This document shows positions 262 through 55,482 of a stretch of DNA of 64,000 bases, piece by piece. The stretch is from Pachysolen tannophilus NRRL Y-2460 (Eukaryota), in assembly GCA_001661245.1 (NCBI GenBank), contig KV454014.1, forward strand, positions 1,321,989 to 1,385,988, given 5' to 3'. Made by a program: the position numbers and the translations under genes. The notes under the pieces were generated by a model. It was not told the origin of the DNA and did not search any database. It saw only the letters and a program-made list of their open reading frames with translations. Position 1 is the stretch's first letter. Every line of letters starts with the position of its first letter.

Positions 262-2487
262 ATGTCTGTTCAGCCGCAGACCGAAACACAGATATCTTTT
301 GTTCAAGCATCATATGATTCCGATTCTGAGATGAATTTGGATGATCAGATAACAATGACTGCTAATGGTGATGGGAATCAGAATGAGTCTGTTGAAAAAG
401 AATTGATTATGGATCTTGATGAAGATGAGAAGGGCGATGAGGATGAAGAAATCCTAGACATTGAAGAAGTTAAAGACCAAGAAGATGAAGCTTTGTCTGA
501 TATTTCTTCTATGACTCAAAGTAATAGCTACCACGAAGAAATTAGCGAGAATGAGGAGAATTATGATACAAGTAAAGATAACGATGAAGAGTTATTGGAT
601 TTTGTTGAAGAAGTACCAGGTGACCAATCGGTAGAAGCGAAAGAAGAAAATCAACAGGAAGGTCAATTAATTGATAATGATAAGAATCAAGAAGAAAAAA
701 TAACCGATACAATATCAGAAATTCAGACAAGTAATCCAAATCCAAATCTAGAATTGAATAAAGATGAGGCACAAAATGAACTGAATTCTGAATTCGGCCA
801 ATTAGAGGGAGACGACCAGAATAATGAAGTTTCAAAAGAGTTGGATGATATAACGGAAAATCAAGTAAAAATGGGGAGTAATAGCATGCATCGAGACCCA
901 GAATTTGAAAATCTGAGTGTAAACGAAGAGACTTCACAAACTCAAGAAGATTATAGTAATAACGAAAAAGAGAATGCTAGTGCCACAGATGATGAGATTT
1001 ACAACGAACAACTCGAAACTGAGGATAAAATAGAAAACAAGAACAAAAATGATAGACTGGGTGAGAATGATGATTCTGAAAAAGTTTTGAACAAGAATGA
1101 AAATGACAATGACCATGACAACGTACATGAGGACGAACACGAGGATGAACATGAGAACGTGCATGAGGGAGAATACGAAGAAAGACACGAAGATAACCAG
1201 CAGGATAATCATGAAGACGACCATGAAGACGACCATGAAGACGAATATGAGGTCAAAGAAGATGTGGAAAATGAGGAGGAGCACGATATTGAAGAGAAGA
1301 ATAGAGATGACCACGAAGGTGACCACGAAGACAGACTTGAGGTCGACCATGAGGTGGAAAATCAAGAGGAGCAAGATAATGAAGAGAAGAATAGAGATGA
1401 CCACGAAGGTGACCACGAAGACAGACTTGAGGTCGACCATGAGGTGGAAAATCAAGAGGAGCAAGATAATGAAGAGAAGAATAGAGATGACCACGAAGGT
1501 GACCACGAAGACGGACATGAGGTCGAACATGAGGTTGAAAATAAGGAGGAGCACGATATTGAAGAGAAGAATGGAGTCACGAGTGAACATGAAAGGGATG
1601 AAATACAGAAAGAGAATTTTGATGATAATAATCTGAACGTATCGCGAGAATCTGTAATAACTGAATTGGAAAAAAGCGAAGAAAAAAAACGAGAGGTGAC
1701 TGAAAACAAGGAGTACAATACTTCCGATTCCACTGTGGCTTCTATTGAAAATGAGATAGTTGACGAAGTGATAGATGATATTTTCAATAAAGGGGACTTG
1801 CCTTTAATTTTGGAAACTGAAACTAGCAGATGTCTCTTAATACAACCACCAGAATATTTTAACAAGGATGAGTTGACTTTACCTGTTCTTTATCAGGACA
1901 AGACAATTGCGGGTAAAACATTAGAAGCCATATTTAATTTGATAAGAGCTACTGAAGAAGTTTCTGGCGAATTTGAAACTGATAAGGAATTGGTATTAAC
2001 AGTTGATGCCTTAGATTTAAAAATTACTGAGGATAATATTTACTGTCATGATATAACTGTGCTGGATTTAATTCATTTGAAAAAAGATGCAAATAAGAAA
2101 AATTCACTGATGTTTAAAGGTAGAGCTGTGGATAATTTGGATAAGATTTCATTAACTTTAAAATTATCCACTCAAAGTAGGTTTATCACTCGATTCAATG
2201 ACTTATGTTCTTCAATAACTTCAGATTCTAAGATTGACGCTGAAGATAATGGAGAAAAGCCAAGTTCGAAAGAAGAAAGAGAAGGAAAAGAAGATGGAAA
2301 AGAAGTTGCAGAAGAAGAAGAAGAGGAAGATGATATTTTAGAGGAAATTGATAATGATGGTTCTTCTACGATCCAACAAAAAGAAGTTGCACAACCAGTG
2401 AGATCTAATAAGCGGGAACTTTATACTGATGATAATAACGATGGACCAGATCAAGAAAGAGGAGGTGTTAAGAAACAAAAAGCTTAG
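262..2487 (+). CDS. Acidic protein with a C-terminal DUF2420/Rmr1-like domain
   Basis: 741-aa ORF; very long D/E/H-rich N-terminal region; C-terminal block LDLKITEDNIYCHDIT...LSTQSRFITRFNDL resembles recalled Rmr1/DUF2420 proteins. Confidence 0.6.
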   Translation: MSVQPQTETQISFVQASYDSDSEMNLDDQITMTANGDGNQNESVEKELIMDLDEDEKGDEDEEILDIEEVKDQEDEALSDISSMTQSNSYHEEISENEENYDTSKDNDEELLDFVEEVPGDQSVEAKEENQQEGQLIDNDKNQEEKITDTISEIQTSNPNPNLELNKDEAQNELNSEFGQLEGDDQNNEVSKELDDITENQVKMGSNSMHRDPEFENLSVNEETSQTQEDYSNNEKENASATDDEIYNEQLETEDKIENKNKNDRLGENDDSEKVLNKNENDNDHDNVHEDEHEDEHENVHEGEYEERHEDNQQDNHEDDHEDDHEDEYEVKEDVENEEEHDIEEKNRDDHEGDHEDRLEVDHEVENQEEQDNEEKNRDDHEGDHEDRLEVDHEVENQEEQDNEEKNRDDHEGDHEDGHEVEHEVENKEEHDIEEKNGVTSEHERDEIQKENFDDNNLNVSRESVITELEKSEEKKREVTENKEYNTSDSTVASIENEIVDEVIDDIFNKGDLPLILETETSRCLLIQPPEYFNKDELTLPVLYQDKTIAGKTLEAIFNLIRATEEVSGEFETDKELVLTVDALDLKITEDNIYCHDITVLDLIHLKKDANKKNSLMFKGRAVDNLDKISLTLKLSTQSRFITRFNDLCSSITSDSKIDAEDNGEKPSSKEEREGKEDGKEVAEEEEEEDDILEEIDNDGSSTIQQKEVAQPVRSNKRELYTDDNNDGPDQERGGVKKQKA
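1250..1572 (+). repeat. 90-bp (30-aa) coding minisatellite, about 3.5 copies
   Basis: 1291-1380 and 1381-1470 are identical; 1471-1560 is diverged; unit EEKNRDDHEGDHEDRLEVDHEVENQEEQDN. Confidence 0.95.
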
Positions 2488-16006: not shown

Positions 16007-17419
16007 TTACATCAATAACATCTTTCTTGGATCTTCAATCAATTCTTTAACTGTTCTTAAGAAAGTGACTGCTTCTCTACCATCTAACATTCTGTGGTCA
16101 TAAGTTAAAGCCAAGTACATCATTGGTCTAGCTTCAACTTTACCATTGACGACAACTGCTCTTTCTTTAACACCATGTAAACCTAAGACGGCTGTTTGTG
16201 GCATATTAATGATTGGAGTACCATATAAGGAACCAAAGACACCACCATTTGAAATGGTAAAAGTACCACCAGTCATATCTTCCAAAGTTAATTTACCATC
16301 TCTTGCTTTCTTTCCAAGTAATGAAATTTCATTTTCAATTTCTAAAACGCTTAAACTTTCAGCATTTCTAACAATTGGAGTAACTAAACCTTTTGGAGTA
16401 GCAACTGCAATTGAAACATCGAAATAATCTCTGAAAACCATTGTATCATTGTTTTCAATAGCAGCATTAACAGCAGGGATATCTTTCAGAGCCAAAGTAG
16501 CAGCTCTTGTGAATGCACCCATGAAACCGAATTTTACACCAGTTTTCTTGAGGAATTCATCCTTGTATAATTTTCTCATTTCCAATAATGAAGACATATC
16601 AACCTCGTTAAATGTAGTTAATGAAGCAGCAGTGTTTTGAGCATCCTTCAATCTTTGAGCAATTCTTAATCTCATACGGTTCATCTTGACTCTTTCTTCA
16701 GATCTAGAGAATGCCTTACCAGCACCTGCTGAAGGAGGAGGAGGAGGAGGTGGTGGAGTAGCATCCTTCTTCTTTGGAGCAGGAGCAGGAGCAGCTTTTG
16801 GAGCTGATGGTGGTGGTGGTGGTGGAGCAGCGGCGGAGGCAGCACCTTCAGTTTCGCTCTTCTTTGGCTCTTCTTTCTTTGAAGGAGAAGGTGGAGGAGG
16901 AGCTGAAGCTGAATCCGAAGCAGCGCCAGCAGGTTTTTCACCTGGTTCAATTTTCAATAAATCTTGACCAACTTGAACAGTATCTTCTGGTTGGACCAAA
17001 AATTCCTTAATAATACCAGCTATTGGGGCATTGACTTCCACATCAATTTTATCTGTTTCTATAGTGGCAACAGTTTCATCTTGGTCAACATAATCACCAA
17101 TTTTTTTAGTAAACAGAGATAAAGTACCCTCGGTAATAGATTCGGCCATTTCCGGAACTTTAACAACGGTAGCATTCCCACGAATAAATTGAAGTCTTGA
17201 AATACTACTAACATTACCATTATTGCTAATTGATTTTATAGCAATTGGTCTAGATAAACTTTGAAATGATCTTGTAAAAATACCAAAACTATCATTTTTG
17301 GAATTTTGTAATAAAACAATCTTTGTAGCATTGGCGCTAATAGAAGATTTTAAACCGACTTTAGTCGATACATTCTTTAAGGTCATAGATGACCTACTGG
17401 TAATATTTCTAGAAAGCAT
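16007..17419 (-). CDS. KGD2: 2-oxoglutarate dehydrogenase E2 (dihydrolipoyl succinyltransferase)
   Basis: Lipoyl motif IETDKIDVEV, Pro/Ala linker, catalytic LTYDHRMLDG, mitochondrial presequence. Confidence 0.98.
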   Translation of the reverse strand: MLSRNITSRSSMTLKNVSTKVGLKSSISANATKIVLLQNSKNDSFGIFTRSFQSLSRPIAIKSISNNGNVSSISRLQFIRGNATVVKVPEMAESITEGTLSLFTKKIGDYVDQDETVATIETDKIDVEVNAPIAGIIKEFLVQPEDTVQVGQDLLKIEPGEKPAGAASDSASAPPPPSPSKKEEPKKSETEGAASAAAPPPPPPSAPKAAPAPAPKKKDATPPPPPPPPSAGAGKAFSRSEERVKMNRMRLRIAQRLKDAQNTAASLTTFNEVDMSSLLEMRKLYKDEFLKKTGVKFGFMGAFTRAATLALKDIPAVNAAIENNDTMVFRDYFDVSIAVATPKGLVTPIVRNAESLSVLEIENEISLLGKKARDGKLTLEDMTGGTFTISNGGVFGSLYGTPIINMPQTAVLGLHGVKERAVVVNGKVEARPMMYLALTYDHRMLDGREAVTFLRTVKELIEDPRKMLLM

Positions 17420-25554: not shown

Positions 25555-26079
25555 TATGTTTTTTCATTTATCTAATTATTACTTTTTCTATATGTGATTA
25601 GTTAATTTTATCATATAGTTATGGCGAACTTGAACGAAAAAACCTTGTTAAATTAGTTCATTTTTTTCATTTTTATCTTTATTTATATATATATGTATAT
25701 GTATATATTCATTTATTTATTCCAATAAGTTACATTTATCCGCTTAAAATCAATTATTTATTCTGATGACTTTATTTGAATTTTGACTTATCGTCATCAG
25801 AAAAAAAAAAAAATTAAAACATAAATGAAAATAATTAGGAAAATAGTTTTATTAGCTTGTATTGACCTTAATTCTAAATATGCTATTAAATGAAATAATG
25901 TAAATGATATACGCCAAAATAAAATAAATAAATAAAGAAAAAAATGAAATAATAATAAAAGAAAAAAAGGAAAGCAACTTCTATCAAACGGAAAATATGA
26001 AAGTGAAGAGACAGGAAAAAAATTGCTTTCCGTCTTGCTTGCGGAAATTGGATGTTTTGGTGAGTAATCTCTTAAAAAT

Positions 26080-26652
26080 TCATTTAGAAATTGGCTCACC
26101 TTTACGCAATTCTTCTTCAGACCATCTTTTTTCAGCATCTAAAAACTCGGCTTGTAATGCATCTCTCTTTGAAATTGGTTCACCTTTACGTAATTCCTCT
26201 TCAGACCATCTCTTTTTGGCATCTAAAAATTCAGCTTTCAATGCCTCTCTTTTTGAAATTGGTTCACCTTTACGCAATTCCTCTTCAGACCATCTTTTCT
26301 CAGCATCTAAAAACTCGGCTTGTAATGCCTCTCTTTTCGAAATTGGTTCACCTTTACGCAATTCTTCTTCAGACCATCTCTTTTTAATCTCTAAAAATTC
26401 GGCTTGTAATGCATCTCTCTTTGAAATTGGTTCACCTTTACGCAATTCTTCTTCAGACCATCTTTTCTCGGCATCCAAAAATTCGGCCTGCAGTGCTTCT
26501 CTTTTTGAAATTGGTTCACCATATTCTAACTCTTCTTCAGTCCAAGGTTGAGCTTCTCTTTTCAAACTTTGACCGGAAATGGAAACTGGAGCGGCGTTGG
26601 TAAAACATAAAAATGTTAAAATTGAAATCAAAACTGTTGATGAAAACTTCAT
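26080..26652 (-). CDS. Secreted Kex2-processed repeat peptide precursor, alpha-pheromone-like (190 aa)
   Basis: Signal peptide MKFSSTVLISILTFLCFTNA; short pro-region ending KR; KR-flanked 13-mers WTEEELEYGEPIS x1 and WSEEELRKGEPIS x5 separated by KR-flanked 11-mers. Confidence 0.9.
   Translation of the reverse strand: MKFSSTVLISILTFLCFTNAAPVSISGQSLKREAQPWTEEELEYGEPISKREALQAEFLDAEKRWSEEELRKGEPISKRDALQAEFLEIKKRWSEEELRKGEPISKREALQAEFLDAEKRWSEEELRKGEPISKREALKAEFLDAKKRWSEEELRKGEPISKRDALQAEFLDAEKRWSEEELRKGEPISK
26083..26544 (-). repeat. 84-bp (28-aa) tandem repeat, about 5.5 units
   Basis: 13-mer coding blocks recur every 84 nt (26544, 26460, 26376, 26292, 26208, 26124) with synonymous variation. 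Confidence 0.95.
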
Positions 26653-26781: not shown

Positions 26782-27227
26782 TTTATATACGAAAACAATT
26801 CTGAAAATATAAAAACATAAAAAGGTAAGAAATATCCCCAATATAGAAGAATGAAACAAGGGTTCCAAACAATTTACAGGCCAACTTAATACTTCAACCA
26901 AGATTTATCAATTAATGAACCTCAAATCGGTGTTTTGAAATTGATCTGGAGGTAAAAAATTACTCTAAAAACAATCCAAATTAGGGGGAAAACTGGGTAC
27001 TAAACATTACAAAACATATTTGATTGAATAAATTCACAAGCCATAATTTGTTTGTCAAGCTATTTCTCCTCACAAAACAAATTTAAGCATACCATTAAAC
27101 TATTTCAGATCTTCCTTACATATGGAGTTTAATACTTGTGCATTGACTGAGAGATGTGATGGCCAATAAATGTGATGAGCTTTGATTCTAGTTTCAGAGT
27201 AGCCCCTTTACTATCCCAATTAGGAAA
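26782..27227 (-). promoter_or_regulatory. Promoter of the repeat precursor: TATA, Ste12 PRE-like and Mcm1-like sites
   Basis: TATATAAA (-) 26782-26789; TGAAACA 26852-26858; CCAAATTAGG 26976-26985; CCCAATTAGGAAA 27215-27227. Confidence 0.6.
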
Positions 27228-27873
27228 CTTTTTTTTAAATGATATTCTATTAAAAAGGGATGCAGATGTCAGTTAATGTCTCTATTGTTTAACTGAAGAA
27301 CTAAGTTAGTTGGATTTTGTCTTTTTTGAGTCTTTTGATAAGATTTATTTAATTAAAAAGTTCGAAAGCGTTTTTTATTTTTTTTTTTATTGTTCATAAG
27401 AATTTCAGCGTAAATTGGTTGTTACAAGGTATAAAAGATTGAAAATAAAAGTAATATTTTAATAAAAAGTGGACATAAAGTTTGAGGCTCACAAACACTA
27501 TTTTTTAAGATGAATTAAAATCTTATTGAAATCAAATGTAAGTAAAATGACAAATTAGTGGTGCTCCTCTTCCCATAAAAGTCTAGCTTAACTTATAAAA
27601 CCAAAAAAAAAAAAAAAATAGCTTTTTTTTTTTTTTTTCTACTTCAATTTACCAATGAAGAAATATAAAATGCCTTAATCAAAGATGATTATTAAATTAA
27701 TAACCTAACATCAGCAGTTTCTAAGCTCTAATGTAATTTATAACGGTACAGTGGTAACGAACTAAACTTCAAACAATGTTTTATTGATTCATATTCACGT
27801 TTCATAATTGTTCAATTCGTCTTTTAATTCATATCAAAATCTTCAATTGATGGGTACTATGTTACATCTTTTA

Positions 27874-28311
27874 CTACATGATGGGAAGTGGCCTAGTTCT
27901 GAAAACAATTTTTTTGTCCACAATTTCTATCATTTCGATTTTAGAAGAAGAATTTTTATTTTCATCATTTTCAACATGATTACTGAATTTTAAGACGCCT
28001 AACGGTGGGTCAATACTTTCTACTGTCCCCACCAACCTCTGACTTTTCCCAATATACAAAGTAGCCTTGTTATTATCCTCCAACTGCAAATCACCAAATT
28101 TAATTGCTTGCCTAACTAAATCAGAGTCAATAGCAGTATCATCTAATAACTGATGAGTTGAATTTAATTTTGTTGGAAGATTTAATACACCTTGAATCTC
28201 TAGTATCAGCAACCCACCCGGCGTATCTATCAACGAACTATTATTTTGAATTCCCTCTTTCGACTCCAATCTATCATGAGCCTTGGAATAATCTACCTCC
28301 AGAGATGGCAT
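27874..28311 (-). CDS. CTF8: Ctf18-RFC subunit Ctf8
   Basis: TPGGLxILEIQG, LYIGKSQRLVG and C-terminal KIVFRTRPLPIM. Confidence 0.92.
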   Translation of the reverse strand: MPSLEVDYSKAHDRLESKEGIQNNSSLIDTPGGLLILEIQGVLNLPTKLNSTHQLLDDTAIDSDLVRQAIKFGDLQLEDNNKATLYIGKSQRLVGTVESIDPPLGVLKFSNHVENDENKNSSSKIEMIEIVDKKIVFRTRPLPIM

Positions 28312-28562
28312 CCTTTCGTTTTATTCTTAATCATTGAAGATTAATCATTTGATGGAAACGCGCTATTCAAATTTATATAGCAAAAGGGTTTTGAAATTAT
28401 GAACACTACTTTGCAAAAATGTAATTTTAAATTCTTATCAAAACCAGTTTAAATGAATGAATGAATGAATTAGTGAATGAATGAATAAATGAATGATGAT
28501 ATAATTATTATTCAAAGTTTTTGACGTGACGTTTTGTTAATTGTTGTGATTAATAATTGGTG

Positions 28563-29495
28563 ATGACTTCTTGGATTCCATTTTTGTATAAATCATCTAA
28601 TAAAAATAAGGGTAATGCTATTGAAGTGTTTGAAAAAGAGTTGAAGTTGATTTCTTTAAATATAAGTAAATTGACTGAGAAATCAAATCAAATAATTAAA
28701 TCACAGAAAACTGTTAAATTTCATTCGATAATTTATTTTATACTGTGTTATTTGGTATATTTGTTTTATTTATTTGTATTGTGTAGTGGGAAATTAGAAC
28801 CACATGATTCATTAGGGTTAGTGATATCACCTATATTATTTAGGTTATACCTTTTCCTGTTAAAATCTATTTATAATAGGAGAATAAATAGTTTAAGTAT
28901 TAAGATTGAAAATTTAAAACAAGATCATCTGGATAAGATAGATGAATTAAAAGAATTAACAAATTTTGCCAAGACAAAGGATATTTTAAGAAAATTTAAT
29001 GAAGAAGGAGAAGATTTAGAAGAATTACTGAAAAAAAATCAACAAGAATATTTTGAAAATTTACAACTTAATAATGTTATACCAAATCAACTGCAATTAC
29101 CACAAAGAGGTCAAAATAATTTCAGTTTAATGGATAAACTTATGCAATTTATTATTGGTGAAGATGAACTTTCTCCTAATCAAAGGTATGCATTAATTTG
29201 TTCAAAATGTTTCCAACATAATGGGTTAGCACCACCAAGCAGAATTCCTAAATATGTTAAATATAGGTGTCCCAACTGTGGTGAACTTAATGGAGAAGAT
29301 GATCCAATTTTGGTAAATGAGGGTGGAAAAGAGGAAACAGAAATAGATGTACTGGAACAAGAACTTAAGGAGACAAAAGATAACGAGAATGAAAAAGTAC
29401 CTGTTAATATTGTTGATAATGAAGGAGATTCAAGCAGTGGCAGTGGTGCTAATAAATATAACGAGAATTCAGCTGCTAGTATTACGAAAAGATAG
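28563..29495 (+). CDS. LNP1: Lunapark ER junction protein
   Basis: Two TM segments, coiled coil, RYALICSKCFQHNGLAPP...YRCPNCGELN zinc ribbon. Confidence 0.93.
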   Translation: MTSWIPFLYKSSNKNKGNAIEVFEKELKLISLNISKLTEKSNQIIKSQKTVKFHSIIYFILCYLVYLFYLFVLCSGKLEPHDSLGLVISPILFRLYLFLLKSIYNRRINSLSIKIENLKQDHLDKIDELKELTNFAKTKDILRKFNEEGEDLEELLKKNQQEYFENLQLNNVIPNQLQLPQRGQNNFSLMDKLMQFIIGEDELSPNQRYALICSKCFQHNGLAPPSRIPKYVKYRCPNCGELNGEDDPILVNEGGKEETEIDVLEQELKETKDNENEKVPVNIVDNEGDSSSGSGANKYNENSAASITKR

Positions 29496-29590
29496 TACTG
29501 CAATTATTTTTTGCTTTTTTTTTTGGAAAAAAGGGTAGTATTTATTTATTTAGTTAATACATACAGTTTTTTTTTTTCTTATTTTTTTGC

Positions 29591-30151
29591 TTATGGGGAT
29601 AAAGACATGATAGCATTAACCATATCACCTTTATGATCTTTTAATGCCTTAACAGCCTTCTTTCTTGAAACATTGGTTTGTTCAACAACAATGTCAATAT
29701 CAGCGGAATCTAAACCAGTTTCATCAACTGGCTCACCATCGTCGTCATTGTCATCTTCATTTTTAGCATTTTCTTTCAATGCAGCAGAAGCTTCCAAGTC
29801 AGCAGTGATTGAAGCTGGATCTTTTGAAGGAATCTCTGAACCAGTAGCATTAGCATTAGCAGCAGAACCTTCTTCAGCAGCAGCAGCAGCAGCAGCAGCC
29901 TGTTGATATCTCTTGTTCAAGTCTTCAACTTTACATTCACCAAAGACGACGTATGCACCACCTTGAGATTTATAAACTTCTGGTCTATCAATTGCAAAGA
30001 CAAAATTACCCTTTTTCTTAAAAGTAACTCTTGAAATACCTGTAATTTGTTTTAAACCTAATTTTAAAATTAATTTCTTTGCTTTTTTTTCATTTTTCGA
30101 TAAAATCGAAACTTCTGCACCTGCAGGAATTTCTTCTTGTTCGATTGACAT
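29591..30151 (-). CDS. EGD2: Nascent polypeptide-associated complex alpha subunit
   Basis: SKNEKKAKKLILKLGLK NAC domain and C-terminal UBA GDMVNAIMSL. Confidence 0.96.
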   Translation of the reverse strand: MSIEQEEIPAGAEVSILSKNEKKAKKLILKLGLKQITGISRVTFKKKGNFVFAIDRPEVYKSQGGAYVVFGECKVEDLNKRYQQAAAAAAAAEEGSAANANATGSEIPSKDPASITADLEASAALKENAKNEDDNDDDGEPVDETGLDSADIDIVVEQTNVSRKKAVKALKDHKGDMVNAIMSLSP

Positions 30152-30450: not shown

Positions 30451-30521
30451 TGCGCAAACCCGGAATCGAACCGGGGGCCCAACGATGGCAACGTTGGATT
30501 TTACCACTAAACCATTTGCGC
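30451..30521 (-). tRNA. tRNA-Gly(GCC)
   Basis: Reverse complement GCGCAAATGGTTTAGTGGTAAAATCCAACGTTGCCATCGTTGGGCCCCCGGTTCGATTCCGGGTTTGCGCA; cloverleaf, A/B boxes, T6 Pol III terminator just downstream. Confidence 0.98.
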
Positions 30522-45261: not shown

Positions 45262-48200
45262 TTAAACATCAAATAAATCATCAAAACAATCTTTTTCCAA
45301 AATTTCAAAATCAACAACATAGTTTAAATTATTATAATTGTTTTCAAAATTATAAATACTCAGATAGTTATAAAAACAACTTCTTAAATTATTAAATTTT
45401 TGATAATCTTTAACACCAGTCAATAATGGTTTAATTTTTAAATTGAGATTATCAGATATCATATTTCTTTTCAAATCTTTAACTTTACTTCTCAAAAGCT
45501 TATCATCATCATCATCAAGATCAATATGATGGTTAAGGGTATCTGAAATTTTTTCACTAGAATCTTCTTTTAAGTCAAGTCTGGAAATCTTTTCGATTAA
45601 TCCAATTAATTCTTCACTTGGGTCATCTTTTTTGAAATAAACGCAATCTTCATTGTCATTGATAAATAACCATTCATCTAATTGAAAATCTTCAATCTTT
45701 AAAATTAACAGTACATCCAACAATTTGCAAGCTTGAACTATTAATTTACTATTTGTACTCTCACCATTAATTAATGAATTTAATAATTTTTTGAAAAATT
45801 TTTGTAATTCAAAATAAACAACTGAGATTATATGTGATAAATGATTTGAGCTAAGTCTCAACAATAATATTCTAAGTAAAAGGTATAATTCTATCTTTAA
45901 ATCTTCAGAATCATCATTGTTTTCCTTGTTGAAAATCTCTTTAACTTTAGTTAGTATTGGATTTATCAAATTAATATATCCATTTTTATCATTGACTAAG
46001 ATTAAATAGTTTAATTTCTTCAAGTTATTTCTTTTAAAGTTTAATATTTCAGAATAATCATTCCAATTAATTAAAGCCGATGATGCAGAACTTGTTGAAA
46101 TTTTTAATATTAAATCTTGTAATTTTTCAGTATTGTCTCGTTTATACAATTTCCTGTAGATTGAATTATAAATTTTCATGTTTTGTTTAATCTTAATATT
46201 GCTGAAGAAACTATTGTTATTGAATAATAATTCATTAAACATGAGTCTCCAGCTTTTGCAACTATCTGAAATTTGATCATTGTTAATAACAATCAATAAA
46301 TCCAACAACGGTTGATTCTCATTTAGCATCTCATTGAATTTCTTATTATTTTTAAAATAATTGATCAAGAAATTATTAATAACATTATTTAAAAAACTTG
46401 TCATTAATTTGTCTTGGTCGGTTATGAGAATTGAAATTTTCGGAACTGAATAAATCAAAGATTCAACAAAATCATCTTGTTTTATATCCTTATCACTTAA
46501 TATCGTATTCAAAAATTTGATGTAATAGTCTGATAATTCTTTTTTAAATTTTCTAAAATCGTTCCCATTATTTAACTTGCTCTCTATTTGATTTAGTTTA
46601 AAATTAACCAAGACTATAACTTTCAAAAGACTTGGAACTATAATTTTACTATTAATATCTTTCAAAAAATTTAGAATTATAGTAATTAAATCTTCAATCA
46701 AATCATCACTCAAAGAATTTAAATATTCAAATAAAAATTCAACTAAATTAAAACCATTTAAATTTGAAATACTTGTATCACTGCTGTTAGTTTTACTGTT
46801 ATTAATCAATTTGACAATATGTGGTAAGGTCAACTGTGGCCTCGACCCATCTAATATGTGTAAAATCTTGAAATTTAATGCATTATGTTCTCTCTCAACG
46901 CTTATTTCAATCAAATTCTCAATAAAATTCAATGGCTCAACAGAGTGAAAAAATTCTAAAAATTTCTTGGATTTATATTTGAATTTTGTAGAATTATAAA
47001 GCAATGATTTGTTATTGTCAATTTTAGAATGATCATAGTCATCAGTGTTGATTATTTTGGAATTAGTTTCTGACCACAACCAAATATCATAACAACATTT
47101 GATACAATTTCTAAAAGATAAGATTATATCAATTTTTTTATTTTGTTCTAAGTTTCTGTCAACAGGAGTTTCTACTTGGAAGACTCCTTGTATTACAGTA
47201 CCAAAAAAACTTTCTCCTGCACCCTCGGTACTATCGTAACCATTTGAAAGTCCATTTGAGTCACTGTTAAAAAAATTCAATTCGTGCGTTTTCAAATAAT
47301 TGTTGATAAATGATGTTAACTGCACTAGACTATTTAGCATTATTGAGATTGACTGATCAACGTCCACAGATTCTTTACTCTTAACTTCACCTTGTGATGT
47401 TAGTATGGTTACAAAATTGTTGAATATCTTGAGTACTTTGGTTGTAATACACTCAGTTAAGATTAATGCAATATTAAATATGCTATCATTAAATTTTTTC
47501 AATGAATTAGTCAACAATTTCATTGAATAATTAAGTAAAATAGAATTTGATCCAAAAGTGATTAAGTCAATCAATAAATTAAGGAAAGAATTATTCCTAT
47601 TAGTATCTTCATCAGTTTTGAAGAAAATGGCCAATTTATTCTTTTTATCATTCTGTATTATATTGTTTAGTGTATCAATCAAACTGATCAAAATTAGGTC
47701 ATTATTCCTGATATGCTTTGTAGCCAAGTTGATCAAATTTTCAAAGATATGAGGTAAATTGGATTCATTACCATCTACTAGAAAAGTTATTAAACTTAAC
47801 GATGATTTGAAGCTCGATTGAAACTCTTTATCATTGCTATCGGAATTTTGAAAATTGATAAATTTCAACAAAATATTGATCATGAAAATTTTATAACTAG
47901 TATCCTTCCAATTATTCAGTTTCATGATTTTAATCAACAAATCGGAATCCAGAACAATAACTTCATTAGTCAAATTCTCACATATAGTCAGCCTATCAAT
48001 ATCAATAAAGTTTATCAAATTATTCAAATTATAATTGAATTTGCATAAATCGTTTTTATCCACATTTAAGGTACTAGAACATAAAAACTCCATTTCTAAA
48101 ATTGGACTTATCAAGATTTTGAAAAGTTTATTAGCATTCATGCCACTGTTAAGCAAATTCAATACCCAGTTACTTATAAAATATTTTTCATTTTCATCAT

Positions 48201-50559
48201 TCAAGCCATCTAAAATCAATTGTAACCACTTGCTCAATATTGACTCATTATTTCCATTTAAAGGAGTTAATGCAACAGTCAAGGGTAGAGTATGAGTATA
48301 TAATAAATTGAAAATTCTTAATCTTTCTTGAACACTTTGGACTTCAATAAAAAATGATGATAAACATGATTCTATGTAAGAAGTGTCAACTGACATTTCC
48401 AAATTAGATATGATTCTAATAAGCTCAATCTGATATTTGTTTGACAAGTCGAAATCCAACAATAGTTTCCACAATAAACTTAACAAATTTTTTAAAAGTT
48501 TCAATTTTTGGAAAATGGATTCATTTGAGGAAAGCGGTTTAACTAAATGATCAAAAATTTTACCAAAGCTAAAAGCTAATTCAATACAAGTAACTTCTGA
48601 TTTTTGGTTCAAGTTACCGAAAACTTCAAGCAAATTATCATCTCTCCATAATTCGTTTTGCTTATCCAATTGTGGAATTTTATCCAATATATCACATAGT
48701 ACATCCGTTAATGGATATATCATCTTGTTCGATGTTTGTTTGAATTTAACAATATCACTAATACTTTCTGCAATTAGCTGAGAACATAAGCTTACCATTA
48801 TAAGTCCTATATCAGTTGATTTAAAGGGCTTGATATCTTCATTAGATTCACTTTCATCATTAGCATCAGTTTCATCTTCTAAATAATAATTTTTAATTAT
48901 TTGTAATGGATTTTTTAAAGACTTAACAAAATTCTTATCTGCCAGATCAATCGGAGAATATGCTCTCTGAGGTATTAAGGAGCTAATCACTTTAATGATC
49001 GTATACCAATCATCATTTTTTTTGGGTATACATAACAAAGAGATCAAGATTAAAGGCAAATGGTTAACAATCATATCTTCTTCTTCAACATTAAAATTTC
49101 TCAAAATAAACAAACATAATTTAAAATTTTCCCCAGAATCATCTCCATCTTGCAATAAAATTTCTAAGAAATTACTCCAAATATTCAAGCAATCAACGTT
49201 ATCAAAAAAAGAATTTGCGAATTTCAAGACATTTTCCTCATCCAGTTCATTATTTTTGCTATGATTATAACAGCTTTTCAAAATTGGAGTCAAAACTTTC
49301 GGTATTATCAATTGACTGATTTCCCATTTATCCATCATAGCCAATGCAATCTTGTAACTTTCAATTCTTTGCTGCGCAGGAGGAAAACAATTTGAAGAGG
49401 CGTTTATCAACTTTAATAAACCTTTTATTAGAGGATTTAATCCATACATGGAAAAATATTCGGATCTTGTTAATTTTGTCGATGTGGCAGAGTTAACAGA
49501 ATGTGTGTCATCTATACTTGATCTGGATTTATGTGGAGAGACCAGTGCTTCTGGATCAGGTCCCAATAACCAATTCCATAATCTTCTATTCAAAGACATA
49601 TCTTTTCTTAATACTGTAGATAAGGCACTCATTATTAAATTTTCTTTATCATGTTCATTTATCAATTTCTGCAACACATCAGATTTTAATTCTAATCTTG
49701 TTACTAGTACATCAAAAAATCCACGTTGTACAAATAAATTTTCATCACGTAAACCTTTTGAAATTGCTCTTACCAATAATCCAGTTTCTGTTGCTATACA
49801 AGCTTTAGATTCATCTTCAGGTAACAATTCCAAAATTTTTGACTTTTCAGTTTCATCACTAGTAATATTAAAATGTGGCAATCTTTTATTACACCAAATT
49901 AAACCACCTAATCTTCTATCTGGTGAAGTTATAATACATAAAAATAAAACATTCCAAAAATGTGAATCACTGTTTAAATTTAACTTCAAGCTATCTATTA
50001 AAGATAGACATTGAATAAAAGTTTCTGATGTCTCATCATCAATTGAGGGAAGCAAACTCAACAACAATGGCTTTAAGATAATTCTTAAAGTTTTACTTGG
50101 TAATGTTACAATGAAATTTCCAAATAAATTAATTATTTGAGGTTTTACACTCATACTAGCAAATGAAATCAATGGTAATAATCCAGGTAACCATATATCA
50201 ACAGTTTCTGCCAATTGTGGCAATCCCAATACATTAAATACCAACTCGTATACTTCCAAAGTTTTTTTATGAACACCGCTAGGTAAATTCTTGTTCAAAC
50301 AATTTGATAAGCATTTTGAAAGTTGATCAGCATACGGAATGAAATTCTTGGTATTTTCAGTATTCGGGTTGGATTGTAATGACTTGACCAACTTTGACAA
50401 GAATGATATATAATCCGCCCACTCTATCACAGAATCAAAATTATTGATTGACTTTTCCACATTAACAATATATTTTTTCTCTTTTGAATTAAAGGCAATG
50501 CTACCATTACCATTATTATCTTTGGACGAAGAAGTCAATATAGACAACGAAGGCGGCAT
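45262..50559 (-). CDS. DOP1: Dopey-family trafficking protein
   Basis: EWADYISFLSKL, LPSGVHKKTLEVY and RKDMSLNRRLWNWLLGP. Confidence 0.95.
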   Translation of the reverse strand: MPPSLSILTSSSKDNNGNGSIAFNSKEKKYIVNVEKSINNFDSVIEWADYISFLSKLVKSLQSNPNTENTKNFIPYADQLSKCLSNCLNKNLPSGVHKKTLEVYELVFNVLGLPQLAETVDIWLPGLLPLISFASMSVKPQIINLFGNFIVTLPSKTLRIILKPLLLSLLPSIDDETSETFIQCLSLIDSLKLNLNSDSHFWNVLFLCIITSPDRRLGGLIWCNKRLPHFNITSDETEKSKILELLPEDESKACIATETGLLVRAISKGLRDENLFVQRGFFDVLVTRLELKSDVLQKLINEHDKENLIMSALSTVLRKDMSLNRRLWNWLLGPDPEALVSPHKSRSSIDDTHSVNSATSTKLTRSEYFSMYGLNPLIKGLLKLINASSNCFPPAQQRIESYKIALAMMDKWEISQLIIPKVLTPILKSCYNHSKNNELDEENVLKFANSFFDNVDCLNIWSNFLEILLQDGDDSGENFKLCLFILRNFNVEEEDMIVNHLPLILISLLCIPKKNDDWYTIIKVISSLIPQRAYSPIDLADKNFVKSLKNPLQIIKNYYLEDETDANDESESNEDIKPFKSTDIGLIMVSLCSQLIAESISDIVKFKQTSNKMIYPLTDVLCDILDKIPQLDKQNELWRDDNLLEVFGNLNQKSEVTCIELAFSFGKIFDHLVKPLSSNESIFQKLKLLKNLLSLLWKLLLDFDLSNKYQIELIRIISNLEMSVDTSYIESCLSSFFIEVQSVQERLRIFNLLYTHTLPLTVALTPLNGNNESILSKWLQLILDGLNDENEKYFISNWVLNLLNSGMNANKLFKILISPILEMEFLCSSTLNVDKNDLCKFNYNLNNLINFIDIDRLTICENLTNEVIVLDSDLLIKIMKLNNWKDTSYKIFMINILLKFINFQNSDSNDKEFQSSFKSSLSLITFLVDGNESNLPHIFENLINLATKHIRNNDLILISLIDTLNNIIQNDKKNKLAIFFKTDEDTNRNNSFLNLLIDLITFGSNSILLNYSMKLLTNSLKKFNDSIFNIALILTECITTKVLKIFNNFVTILTSQGEVKSKESVDVDQSISIMLNSLVQLTSFINNYLKTHELNFFNSDSNGLSNGYDSTEGAGESFFGTVIQGVFQVETPVDRNLEQNKKIDIILSFRNCIKCCYDIWLWSETNSKIINTDDYDHSKIDNNKSLLYNSTKFKYKSKKFLEFFHSVEPLNFIENLIEISVEREHNALNFKILHILDGSRPQLTLPHIVKLINNSKTNSSDTSISNLNGFNLVEFLFEYLNSLSDDLIEDLITIILNFLKDINSKIIVPSLLKVIVLVNFKLNQIESKLNNGNDFRKFKKELSDYYIKFLNTILSDKDIKQDDFVESLIYSVPKISILITDQDKLMTSFLNNVINNFLINYFKNNKKFNEMLNENQPLLDLLIVINNDQISDSCKSWRLMFNELLFNNNSFFSNIKIKQNMKIYNSIYRKLYKRDNTEKLQDLILKISTSSASSALINWNDYSEILNFKRNNLKKLNYLILVNDKNGYINLINPILTKVKEIFNKENNDDSEDLKIELYLLLRILLLRLSSNHLSHIISVVYFELQKFFKKLLNSLINGESTNSKLIVQACKLLDVLLILKIEDFQLDEWLFINDNEDCVYFKKDDPSEELIGLIEKISRLDLKEDSSEKISDTLNHHIDLDDDDDKLLRSKVKDLKRNMISDNLNLKIKPLLTGVKDYQKFNNLRSCFYNYLSIYNFENNYNNLNYVVDFEILEKDCFDDLFDV

Positions 50560-54662: not shown

Positions 54663-55211
54663 TTATTCTTTGAGTTCTCCTGATTTAACAATTTCGACTT
54701 TTGATGAAGGAGTACCTGATCTTGAGCCAGCAGCCTCGATAGCATCAATAGTTTCAGTACCTTCAACAACTTCACCAAAGACAACATGATGACCATCTAA
54801 CCAAGGACATGGGACGGTTGTTATGAAGAATTGCGATCCATTTGTATTTGGTCCTGCATTTGCCATTGAGAGTAAATATGGTTTTGTATGTTTTTTTTCA
54901 AAATTTTCATCTGGAAATTTTTCACCATAAATTGATTTACCACCTGTACCATTAAAATTAGTAAAATCACCACCTTGTATCATGAATTGAGGAATGATTC
55001 TATGGAAAATGGATTTCTCATATCCAAAACCTTTTTCACCAGTACATAAAGCTCTGAAATTTTCAGTTGTCTTTGGAACTGTTTTATCAAATAATTCAAA
55101 TACAATTCTTGGTTGTTTATTACCGGCAATAGCGGTATCAAAGAAAACTTTCTTACCAAAGACAGCAGCTGAAGAAGAAAAAGAACGAATACCAAATGAT
55201 TTAGCAAACAT
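54663..55211 (-). CDS. CPR3: Cyclophilin with mitochondrial presequence (Cpr3-like)
   Basis: [15 protein letters not shown] presequence; [15 protein letters not shown] and [18 protein letters not shown]. Confidence 0.85.
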
Positions 55212-55290: not shown

Positions 55291-55482
55291 TGTTATATTG
55301 TTATATAACTTTTTGTATTCATTTAATTATTCATTGTTCACCGTTAAAAAGCGTCTTAAAATAGTTATAATTTTAATTTCCTAATTCGGTACTTTCCTAA
55401 ATTGAAAATCGAGATGAGTGTTCCTAACGGATAATGGATAATGAATGGATGGTTGGATGGTTGGATGGTTGGATGAATTGTG

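Follow-up and report, generated by a model that had tools for sequence, protein, structure and literature searches.

The contig KV454014.1 of the budding yeast Pachysolen tannophilus NRRL Y-2460 (GenBank assembly GCA_001661245.1) carries a gene for a repeat-containing secreted precursor which, to judge from its sequence, belongs to the alpha-factor precursor family as a divergent and odd member and is not a new kind of system. We analysed a window of 64,000 nucleotides (nt) from this contig (positions 1,321,989 to 1,385,988 of the forward strand; coordinates below count from its first letter), in which the open reading frame (ORF) 26652..26080 on the minus strand encodes 190 amino acids followed by a TGA stop. 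It is a real gene for a small secreted precursor and it is under selection. We consider it probable that the gene has a mating-pheromone function, namely that it encodes the alpha-type precursor of this CUG-Ala-clade yeast, matured by the Kex2/Kex1/Ste13 route and addressed to a co-evolved Ste2-type receptor.

Precursor layout and selection on the repeated peptide

The precursor is organised around a protein repeat unit of 28 amino acids, and its parts are listed in Table 1. Six copies of a 13-residue peptide beginning with Trp, five of them identical (WSEEELRKGEPIS) and the first a variant (WTEEELEYGEPIS), are separated by five 11-residue spacers of consensus [ED]AL[QK]AEFL.., each with Lys-Arg (KR) at both ends; there are 11 KR sites in total, KR directly precedes Trp in all of copies 2-6, and no N-glycosylation sequon occurs in the whole protein. 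At the DNA level Tandem Repeats Finder described an 84-nt unit (28 codons) in 5.2 copies with 87 % matches and a score of 664 at 26083-26520. The signal peptide was called from the sequence and the alignment described below only, rather than with a dedicated predictor. The original prediction, made from the letters of the window, had listed a 20-residue signal peptide, a 12-residue pro-region ending in KR, the numbers of copies and a final Lys before the stop, all of which are present in the translation, while its layout left out 69 residues (the EAQP tetrapeptide and the five 15-residue KR-spacer-KR blocks).

Between copies 2-6 the codons of the 13-mer (39 nt each) show five synonymous and no non-synonymous differences (binomial P = 3.6e-4, given that 31 of the 39 sites are non-synonymous), and the 13-mer is under purifying selection.

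Homology to alpha-factor precursors

The Pfam MF_alpha score, the phmmer matches and an in-register alignment together show the precursor to be an MFalpha homologue, and the "very divergent MFalpha" of the original prediction stands as a statement of homology. The 13-position MF_alpha model (PF04648) scored 31.3 bits (E = 2.2e-7) against a curated cut-off of 19, a score that sums over the copies. When 1.84 billion representatives were searched exhaustively with phmmer (threshold E<=1e-3), 10 matches were obtained, and four of the six retrieved are alpha-factor-type precursors with E-values from 9.1e-11 to 5.9e-4: P0003 (WHWLYLRPGQPMF), the best match at E 9.1e-11, P0004 from Saitoella complicata with the peptide WQPYYGEPIM, P0007 (WGWIRFRKGQPVN, in four copies) and P0010 (WHWLELDWGQPLY). 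In the alignment of five sequences M1, K2 and the A20-A21-P22 of the signal cut (between A and AP) are invariant, as are W, G, P, K and R of the successive repeats (W1, G9, P11 and the KR pair), and a pairwise BLASTP comparison matches P0007 collinearly all the way from Met1 to the C-terminus (65 bits, E 9e-18). The end of the spacer, D-A-E-K-R-W, lines up with D-A-D-A-[KR]-W of the other precursors; the spacer therefore resembles a Ste13 spacer remodelled in such a way that the residue ahead of Trp now belongs to the second KR.

The remaining two of the six retrieved phmmer matches were unrelated repeat proteins and were set aside. None of the four long phmmer matches (770-1416 amino acids) shows the peptide pattern, this being a pattern check only, and a word-indexed homologue search with the single protein as query, over 8000 candidates, gave no match at E<=0.01. 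In the ESM Atlas the standard-code precursor is present letter for letter; its feature matches there, at 0.79-0.86, fall below the 0.9 level and are leads only, with an MF_alpha_N/MF_alpha cluster at rank 3. The sole locus from a scan of metagenome contigs (L001) was a chance word match inside the ORF of an unrelated large enzyme.

P0007 itself carries one degenerate, acidic and Trp-less copy ending in IGEPAA, which aligns with the SEEEL..GEPIS units of the window precursor. Such a copy may illustrate how a variant of this sort could arise inside a normal precursor.

The peptide among known alpha-factors

For comparison of the mature peptides we used a sample of 36 precursors, mostly from Saccharomycetaceae; a peptide pattern read 30 of them and gave 22 distinct peptides, the six precursors that did not fit being left out. 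The peptide has W1, L6, a basic residue 7, G9, Q/E10, P11 and a hydrophobic residue 12 in common with WHWLQLKPGQPMY, read from precursors P0018 and P0037, which bears out the matches to the S. cerevisiae peptide that had been noted from the window alone. Relative to the consensus W-x-W...G-Q-P, it retains W1, L6, R7, G9 and P11, lacks W3 and has Glu for Q10; the same GEP with Glu10 is found in P0004 and P0040.

The original prediction regarded a SEEE-type N-terminal half and the resulting net acidity as the oddity of the peptide. The N-terminal change is confirmed, whereas acidity does not set the peptide apart: the main peptide WSEEELRKGEPIS has a net charge of -2 and copy 1 (WTEEELEYGEPIS) of -5, and -2 is also the charge of WHWLELDWGQPLY (8 precursors) and WHWLELEWGQPLY (3 precursors), that is of 11 of the 36 compared. 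The distinctive trait is instead the replacement of H-W-L by S-E-E, with loss of the second Trp and of all other aromatics and with extreme hydrophilicity. The two peptides of the gene are the most hydrophilic of the 22 by grand average of hydropathy (-1.43 and -1.15, the next being -0.97) and contain one and two aromatic or His residues, against three to five in the others.

For S. cerevisiae alpha-factor, the accessible part of the Naider/Becker review (PMC7570734) assigns the start of signalling to the first four residues, a bend with a critical Gly9 to residues 7-10, and binding to the three C-terminal residues. Compared with these roles, the window peptide retains the bend (R-K-G-E) and Pro11, and its signalling end is changed.

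Proposed processing and function

We infer processing, secretion, receptor and mating role by analogy with the family. The 20-residue signal peptide would carry the 190-residue precursor into the endoplasmic reticulum (ER) and be cut off before APV; in the late Golgi Kex2 would cleave after all 11 Lys-Arg pairs, Kex1 would trim the C-terminal Lys/Arg, the single terminal Lys included, and Ste13 would take EA and QP off copy 1 only. In the accessible text of PMC6339444 Ste13 is specific for X-Ala/X-Pro dipeptides; such dipeptides (EA-QP) stand before copy 1, and copies 2-6 are without them. The route through Kex2, Kex1 and Ste13 that had been suggested for this precursor fits its sequence, with Ste13 required for copy 1 alone since KR lies directly before the other Trp residues. 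The KR-EA-QP-W layout of copy 1 is canonical and fixes Trp as the mature N-terminus. The expected products would be WSEEELRKGEPIS five times, WTEEELEYGEPIS once, a pro-fragment of 10 residues and the five spacers as acidic peptides of 11 residues. Their calculated monoisotopic masses are 1558.763 Da for WSEEELRKGEPIS, 1580.688 Da for the copy-1 peptide, 1220.56-1275.67 Da for spacers 2-5 and, for spacer 1, 1234.57 Da under the standard code or 1192.52 Da if residue 54 is Ala.

In this scheme the 13-mer would be the signal, binding the Ste2-type receptor of a-type cells. Its retained turn and tail (L6-R7-K8-G9-E10-P11-I12) would do the binding, and the changed first four residues (WSEE vs WHWL) would activate a correspondingly altered, co-evolved receptor pocket. 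The amphipathic spacers might stand in for the missing long pro-region in folding or ER export, a compensation that we offer as speculation. According to the accessible part of Krassowski et al. (PMC6692504), both MATa and MATalpha genes occur in the CUG-Ala clade, and the MAT region of P. tannophilus is invertible, induced by nitrogen depletion or starvation, so a functional alpha pheromone is to be expected in this lineage.

A more ambitious proposal joins two changes: that the activating contact has switched from aromatic-hydrophobic (W-H-W-L) to electrostatic (W-S-E-E-E) together with basic substitutions in the receptor pocket, and that KR-bounded amphipathic spacers have replaced a glycosylated pro-region. 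We put this forward tentatively and regard the combination as doubtful. If true, the spacers would be built-in helpers of export or folding, or else a second released signal, in which case one gene would give two conserved peptide species.

Evidence against the pheromone reading and its alternatives

Several observations weigh against a mating pheromone of the alpha-factor type. No single stretch of the precursor passes the MF_alpha cut-off alone, and the best stretch spans profile positions 5-12 only (ELRKGEPI), which places the N-terminal half of the peptide off the family profile. The pro-region family MF_alpha_N (PF05436) has no match in the precursor at E<=10, and 32 of the 33 precursors from a profile search with the five sequences carry it; the pro-region of the Saitoella precursor P0004 is also short, so that a long pro-region is typical and not universal. 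W-x-W, present in all 20 other compared peptides, is missing from those of the gene. TGAAACA, the core of the Ste12 pheromone-response element, is not enriched: the window has 17 occurrences where 24.6 are expected, and only one of these is upstream of the gene. Finally, an AlphaFold2 model from the single sequence without alignment (mean predicted local distance difference test, pLDDT, 61.8; predicted template modelling score, pTM, 0.33) has helices of ~22 residues starting from each KR and linked by GEPIS, with one helix across each spacer-KR-WSEEELRK junction; the model is weak and indicates helical propensity, nothing more.

The upstream region offers suggestive support for a pheromone gene in the form of candidate Mcm1-type boxes. 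The CCTAATTNGG box occurs three times in the window against 0.46 expected, and two of the three lie in the 1.2-kb spacer upstream of the gene, a count to be read with the caution that the pattern was picked after the promoter had been inspected. CC(A/T)6GG alone is not enriched in the window (5 vs 5.35 expected).

We regard it as unlikely that the gene encodes a secreted peptide that derives from a pheromone but acts outside mating, for instance as an autocrine or quorum-type signal, with a separate conventional MFalpha serving mating. Such a role would accommodate the lack of conservation in the four N-terminal residues to which the accessible part of PMC7570734 attributes signalling, the high hydrophilicity and few aromatics of the peptide among the 22, and the loss of the long pro-region. 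Pheromone-like members of the Kex2-processed repeat proteins (KEPs) with other presumed functions are described in the accessible text of PMC6339444, yet the same survey counts one KEP in P. tannophilus, an indirect argument, and no other KR-delimited repeat ORF was found in the 64-kb window. The Mcm1-type boxes also suit a cell-type-regulated gene, and divergence of pheromone N-termini from clade to clade is known.

More improbable, in our view, is that the active product is the 11-residue spacer, the undivided 26-mer of spacer, KR and 13-mer, or spacer and 13-mer both. The spacers are themselves constrained: four copies of the KR-spacer-KR block differ by seven synonymous and five non-synonymous changes where ~82 % non-synonymous would be expected (P = 1.9e-3), under the standard code residues A2, L3, A5, E6, F7 and L8 show no change, and peptide and spacer do not differ significantly in their constraint (Fisher P = 0.24). 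Selection alone therefore does not mark the 13-mer as the sole active product. KR on both flanks would free the spacers as discrete peptides, and the survey, in its accessible part, assigns two derived peptides to the P. tannophilus KEP (PMC6339444). The 13-mer, however, is free of amino-acid changes across five copies, against five variable positions in the spacers, copy 1 is preceded by plain KR-EAQP and no spacer, and in the alignment the spacer falls opposite the (Asp/Glu-Ala)n Ste13 spacers that other precursors discard.

An unprocessed secreted alpha-helical repeat protein, with the KR pairs left uncut inside the helix, is very improbable; the helices of the AlphaFold2 model, separated by GEPIS loops, would be in keeping with it, but that model is weak, the 11 KR pairs line up exactly with the KR sites of true precursors, and the Pfam MF_alpha match also opposes it. 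A chance ORF through a DNA tandem repeat is scarcely credible even though the opposite strand is open as an antisense shadow of the repeat (184 amino acids, 25997..26551, plus strand) and the protein is missing from a large protein collection, for there are a signal peptide, a Met start and a candidate TATA box, the differences among the 13-mers are synonymous only, and homology to alpha-factor precursors runs through the non-repeated N-terminus.

Gene features and neighbourhood

CTF8 (27874-28311) lies upstream on the same strand, followed by a lunapark-type gene and a NAC-alpha gene, and a KH-domain gene lies downstream. Since CTF8 ends at the 1.2-kb intergenic spacer and is transcribed in the same direction, this spacer belongs to the pheromone gene. 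The elements found there are given in Table 1 with the parts of the precursor; the 16-bp palindrome used as a query is that of the Mcm1 P-box. A run of ~18 A, five bases and then a run of ~18 T lie in mid-spacer at 27600-27640.

Table 1 Features of the precursor gene and its upstream region (window coordinates)
Feature	Position	Strand	Basis
Whole prepro-pheromone coding sequence	26080..26652	-	Translation; Pfam MF_alpha 31.3 bits
Signal peptide, residues 1-20, MKFSSTVLISILTFLCFTNA; hydrophobic, ends TNA, predicted cut before APV	26593..26652	-	Sequence
Short pro-region, residues 21-32, APVSISGQSLKR; ends in the first Kex2 site, no N-glycosylation sequon	26557..26592	-	Sequence
EAQP, residues 33-36; two X-Ala/X-Pro Ste13-type dipeptides before copy 1	26545..26556	-	Sequence
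Copy 1, variant peptide WTEEELEYGEPIS, residues 37-49; single occurrence	26506..26544	-	Sequence
KR + spacer 1 + KR, residues 50-64; only CTG codon of the gene at residue 54	26461..26505	-	Sequence
Copy 2, WSEEELRKGEPIS, residues 65-77	26422..26460	-	Sequence
KR + spacer 2 (DALQAEFLEIK) + KR, residues 78-92	26377..26421	-	Sequence
Copy 3, WSEEELRKGEPIS, residues 93-105	26338..26376	-	Sequence
KR + spacer 3 (EALQAEFLDAE) + KR, residues 106-120	26293..26337	-	Sequence
Copy 4, WSEEELRKGEPIS, residues 121-133	26254..26292	-	Sequence
KR + spacer 4 (EALKAEFLDAK) + KR, residues 134-148	26209..26253	-	Sequence
Copy 5, WSEEELRKGEPIS, residues 149-161	26170..26208	-	Sequence
KR + spacer 5 (DALQAEFLDAE) + KR, residues 162-176	26125..26169	-	Sequence
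Copy 6, WSEEELRKGEPIS (177-189), and terminal Lys, residues 177-190	26083..26124	-	Sequence
TATATAAA, candidate TATA box, ~130-137 nt upstream of ATG	26782..26789	-	Sequence, inference only
TGAAACA, single, Ste12 element core, ~200 nt upstream	26852..26858	+	Pattern search
CCTAATTTGG, perfect CC(A/T)6GG box (Mcm1/SRF type), ~325-333 nt upstream	26976..26985	-	Pattern search
The window's best match to the 16-bp palindrome of the Mcm1 P-box, with 2 mismatches and including CCTAATTGGG, ~560-575 nt upstream	27212..27227	-	Pattern search

CTF8, the lunapark-type zinc-ribbon gene and the NAC-alpha (EGD2-like) gene stand side by side at 27874-30151, an order shared with S. cerevisiae chromosome VIII; the pheromone gene is not known to lie next to them in that species. 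Elsewhere in the window two adjacent 3-mismatch matches to the Mcm1 P-box, including CCTAATTCGG, lie at 55377-55408 (+) upstream of a cyclophilin gene (54663-55211, -). A DUF2420 protein of 741 amino acids (262-2487, +) contains at least three copies of an internal repeat EEKNRDDHE, and its DNA repeat causes two overlapping shadow ORFs at 934-1590 (-) and 1097-1636 (+). A Pfam scan of 28 ORFs of the window found no receptor, Kex2-like protease, DUF3328/UstYa or tyrosinase gene.

Genetic code and earlier records

The window has a G+C content of 27 %. DOP1 (45262-50559, -) has its best named relatives in Pichiaceae at 35 % identity, and the copy of DOP1 in the protein collection has Ala at all eight of its CTG codons; CTF8 translated with table 26 is likewise present in the collection (NCBI, UniRef). 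Taken together, these observations point to a host of the CUG-Ala clade. In the pheromone gene CTG at residue 54 reads as Leu by the standard code and as Ala by table 26, and no other codon is affected. Three of the eight CTG codons of DOP1 fall at strongly Leu/Ile columns (50/59 Leu, 47/59 Leu and 30/59 Ile), and the CTG at residue 311 of a KGD2-type E2 (16007-17419, -) aligns with Ile/Leu in two solved homologues; the remaining CTG positions are in variable columns. The only transfer RNA (tRNA) gene of the window is tRNA-Gly(GCC) at 30451-30521 (-), and no tRNA with a CAG anticodon occurs in it.

The precursor was not found in either translation in a collection of 15 billion proteins in which its neighbour CTF8 is present, and the gene thus seems to have been left out of the deposited protein set. 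Among nine listed sequencing runs seven contain the stretch or part of it, and no RNA data set is listed as containing it. The exact 13-mer WSEEELRKGEPIS was not found in ~8.4 million searchable literature texts, and our literature searches found no paper describing a Pachysolen alpha-factor. Peptide fragments were not found in the searched supplements of PMC7329392, PMC6339444 and PMC6265332, the search having left outside it the KEP sequence table of PMC6339444, which could contain the gene. For P. tannophilus NRRL Y-2460, Table S1 of Le Marquer et al., in the accessible part of that paper, has a single KEP, from which two peptides derive (PMC6339444). This entry fits the window gene, so that an earlier count may have included the gene without a description of it; the identity of the two is unproven.

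Significance

The gene extends the alpha-factor repertoire by a natural outlier. With turn and tail retained and the receptor-activating N-terminus now Ser-Glu-Glu-Glu, the peptide would be a natural test of how a Ste2-type receptor reads the first four residues, and peptide and receptor would make a candidate orthogonal pair of peptide and G-protein-coupled receptor, of the kind that is mined for synthetic cell-cell communication in the accessible part of PMC6265332. The precursor also shows that the alpha-factor family can do without a long glycosylated pro-region. The host lineage is used in biotechnology, and knowledge of its pheromone would aid the control of mating in strain breeding.

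Relation to known systems

A KEP is defined as a secreted protein with at least three near-identical peptides separated by dibasic sites (KR/KK/RR) (PMC7329392; accessible text of PMC6339444), and the window precursor, with its signal peptide and six KR-separated copies, satisfies this definition. Unlike KEPs of the class of peptides made on ribosomes and modified after translation (ustiloxin/dikaritin class), it has no DUF3328/UstYa or tyrosinase domain in any of the 28 window ORFs scanned; mating-factor KEPs likewise lack DUF3328/tyrosinase neighbours (PMC7329392).

In the neighbouring family Pichiaceae, Komagataella phaffii MFalpha also has multiple copies (nine) flanked by Kex2 and Ste13 sites, according to the accessible part of PMC5993090, where it is a single gene that nitrogen limitation induces and whose synthetic peptide has activity. 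It differs in its usable pre-pro leader, the Pachysolen precursor having almost no pro-region, and the likeness of the two is by the description in that source only.

The prepro-alpha-factors of Saccharomycetaceae (S. cerevisiae MFalpha1/MFalpha2 type; PF04648 and PF05436) share with the window precursor the signal cut before A-P, the tandem Trp-first 13-mers with KR after each of them and, ahead of copy 1, dipeptides of the Ste13 type. They have an N-glycosylated pro-region of ~60 amino acids in place of 12 amino acids without sequons, and (Glu/Asp-Ala)n spacers in place of conserved 11-mers with a second KR. The window peptide is without their second Trp and His, has Glu10 for Gln and ends in Ser where theirs end in Tyr/Phe. 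P0007 differs from the window precursor in that its pro-region is long and has a sequon, its Ste13 spacers are rich in Ala and its main peptide is basic and aromatic, with a net charge of +3; P0003 has the lower database E-value, and it is P0007 that matches the precursor collinearly over its whole length, with the R-K-G-[QE]-P core in common.

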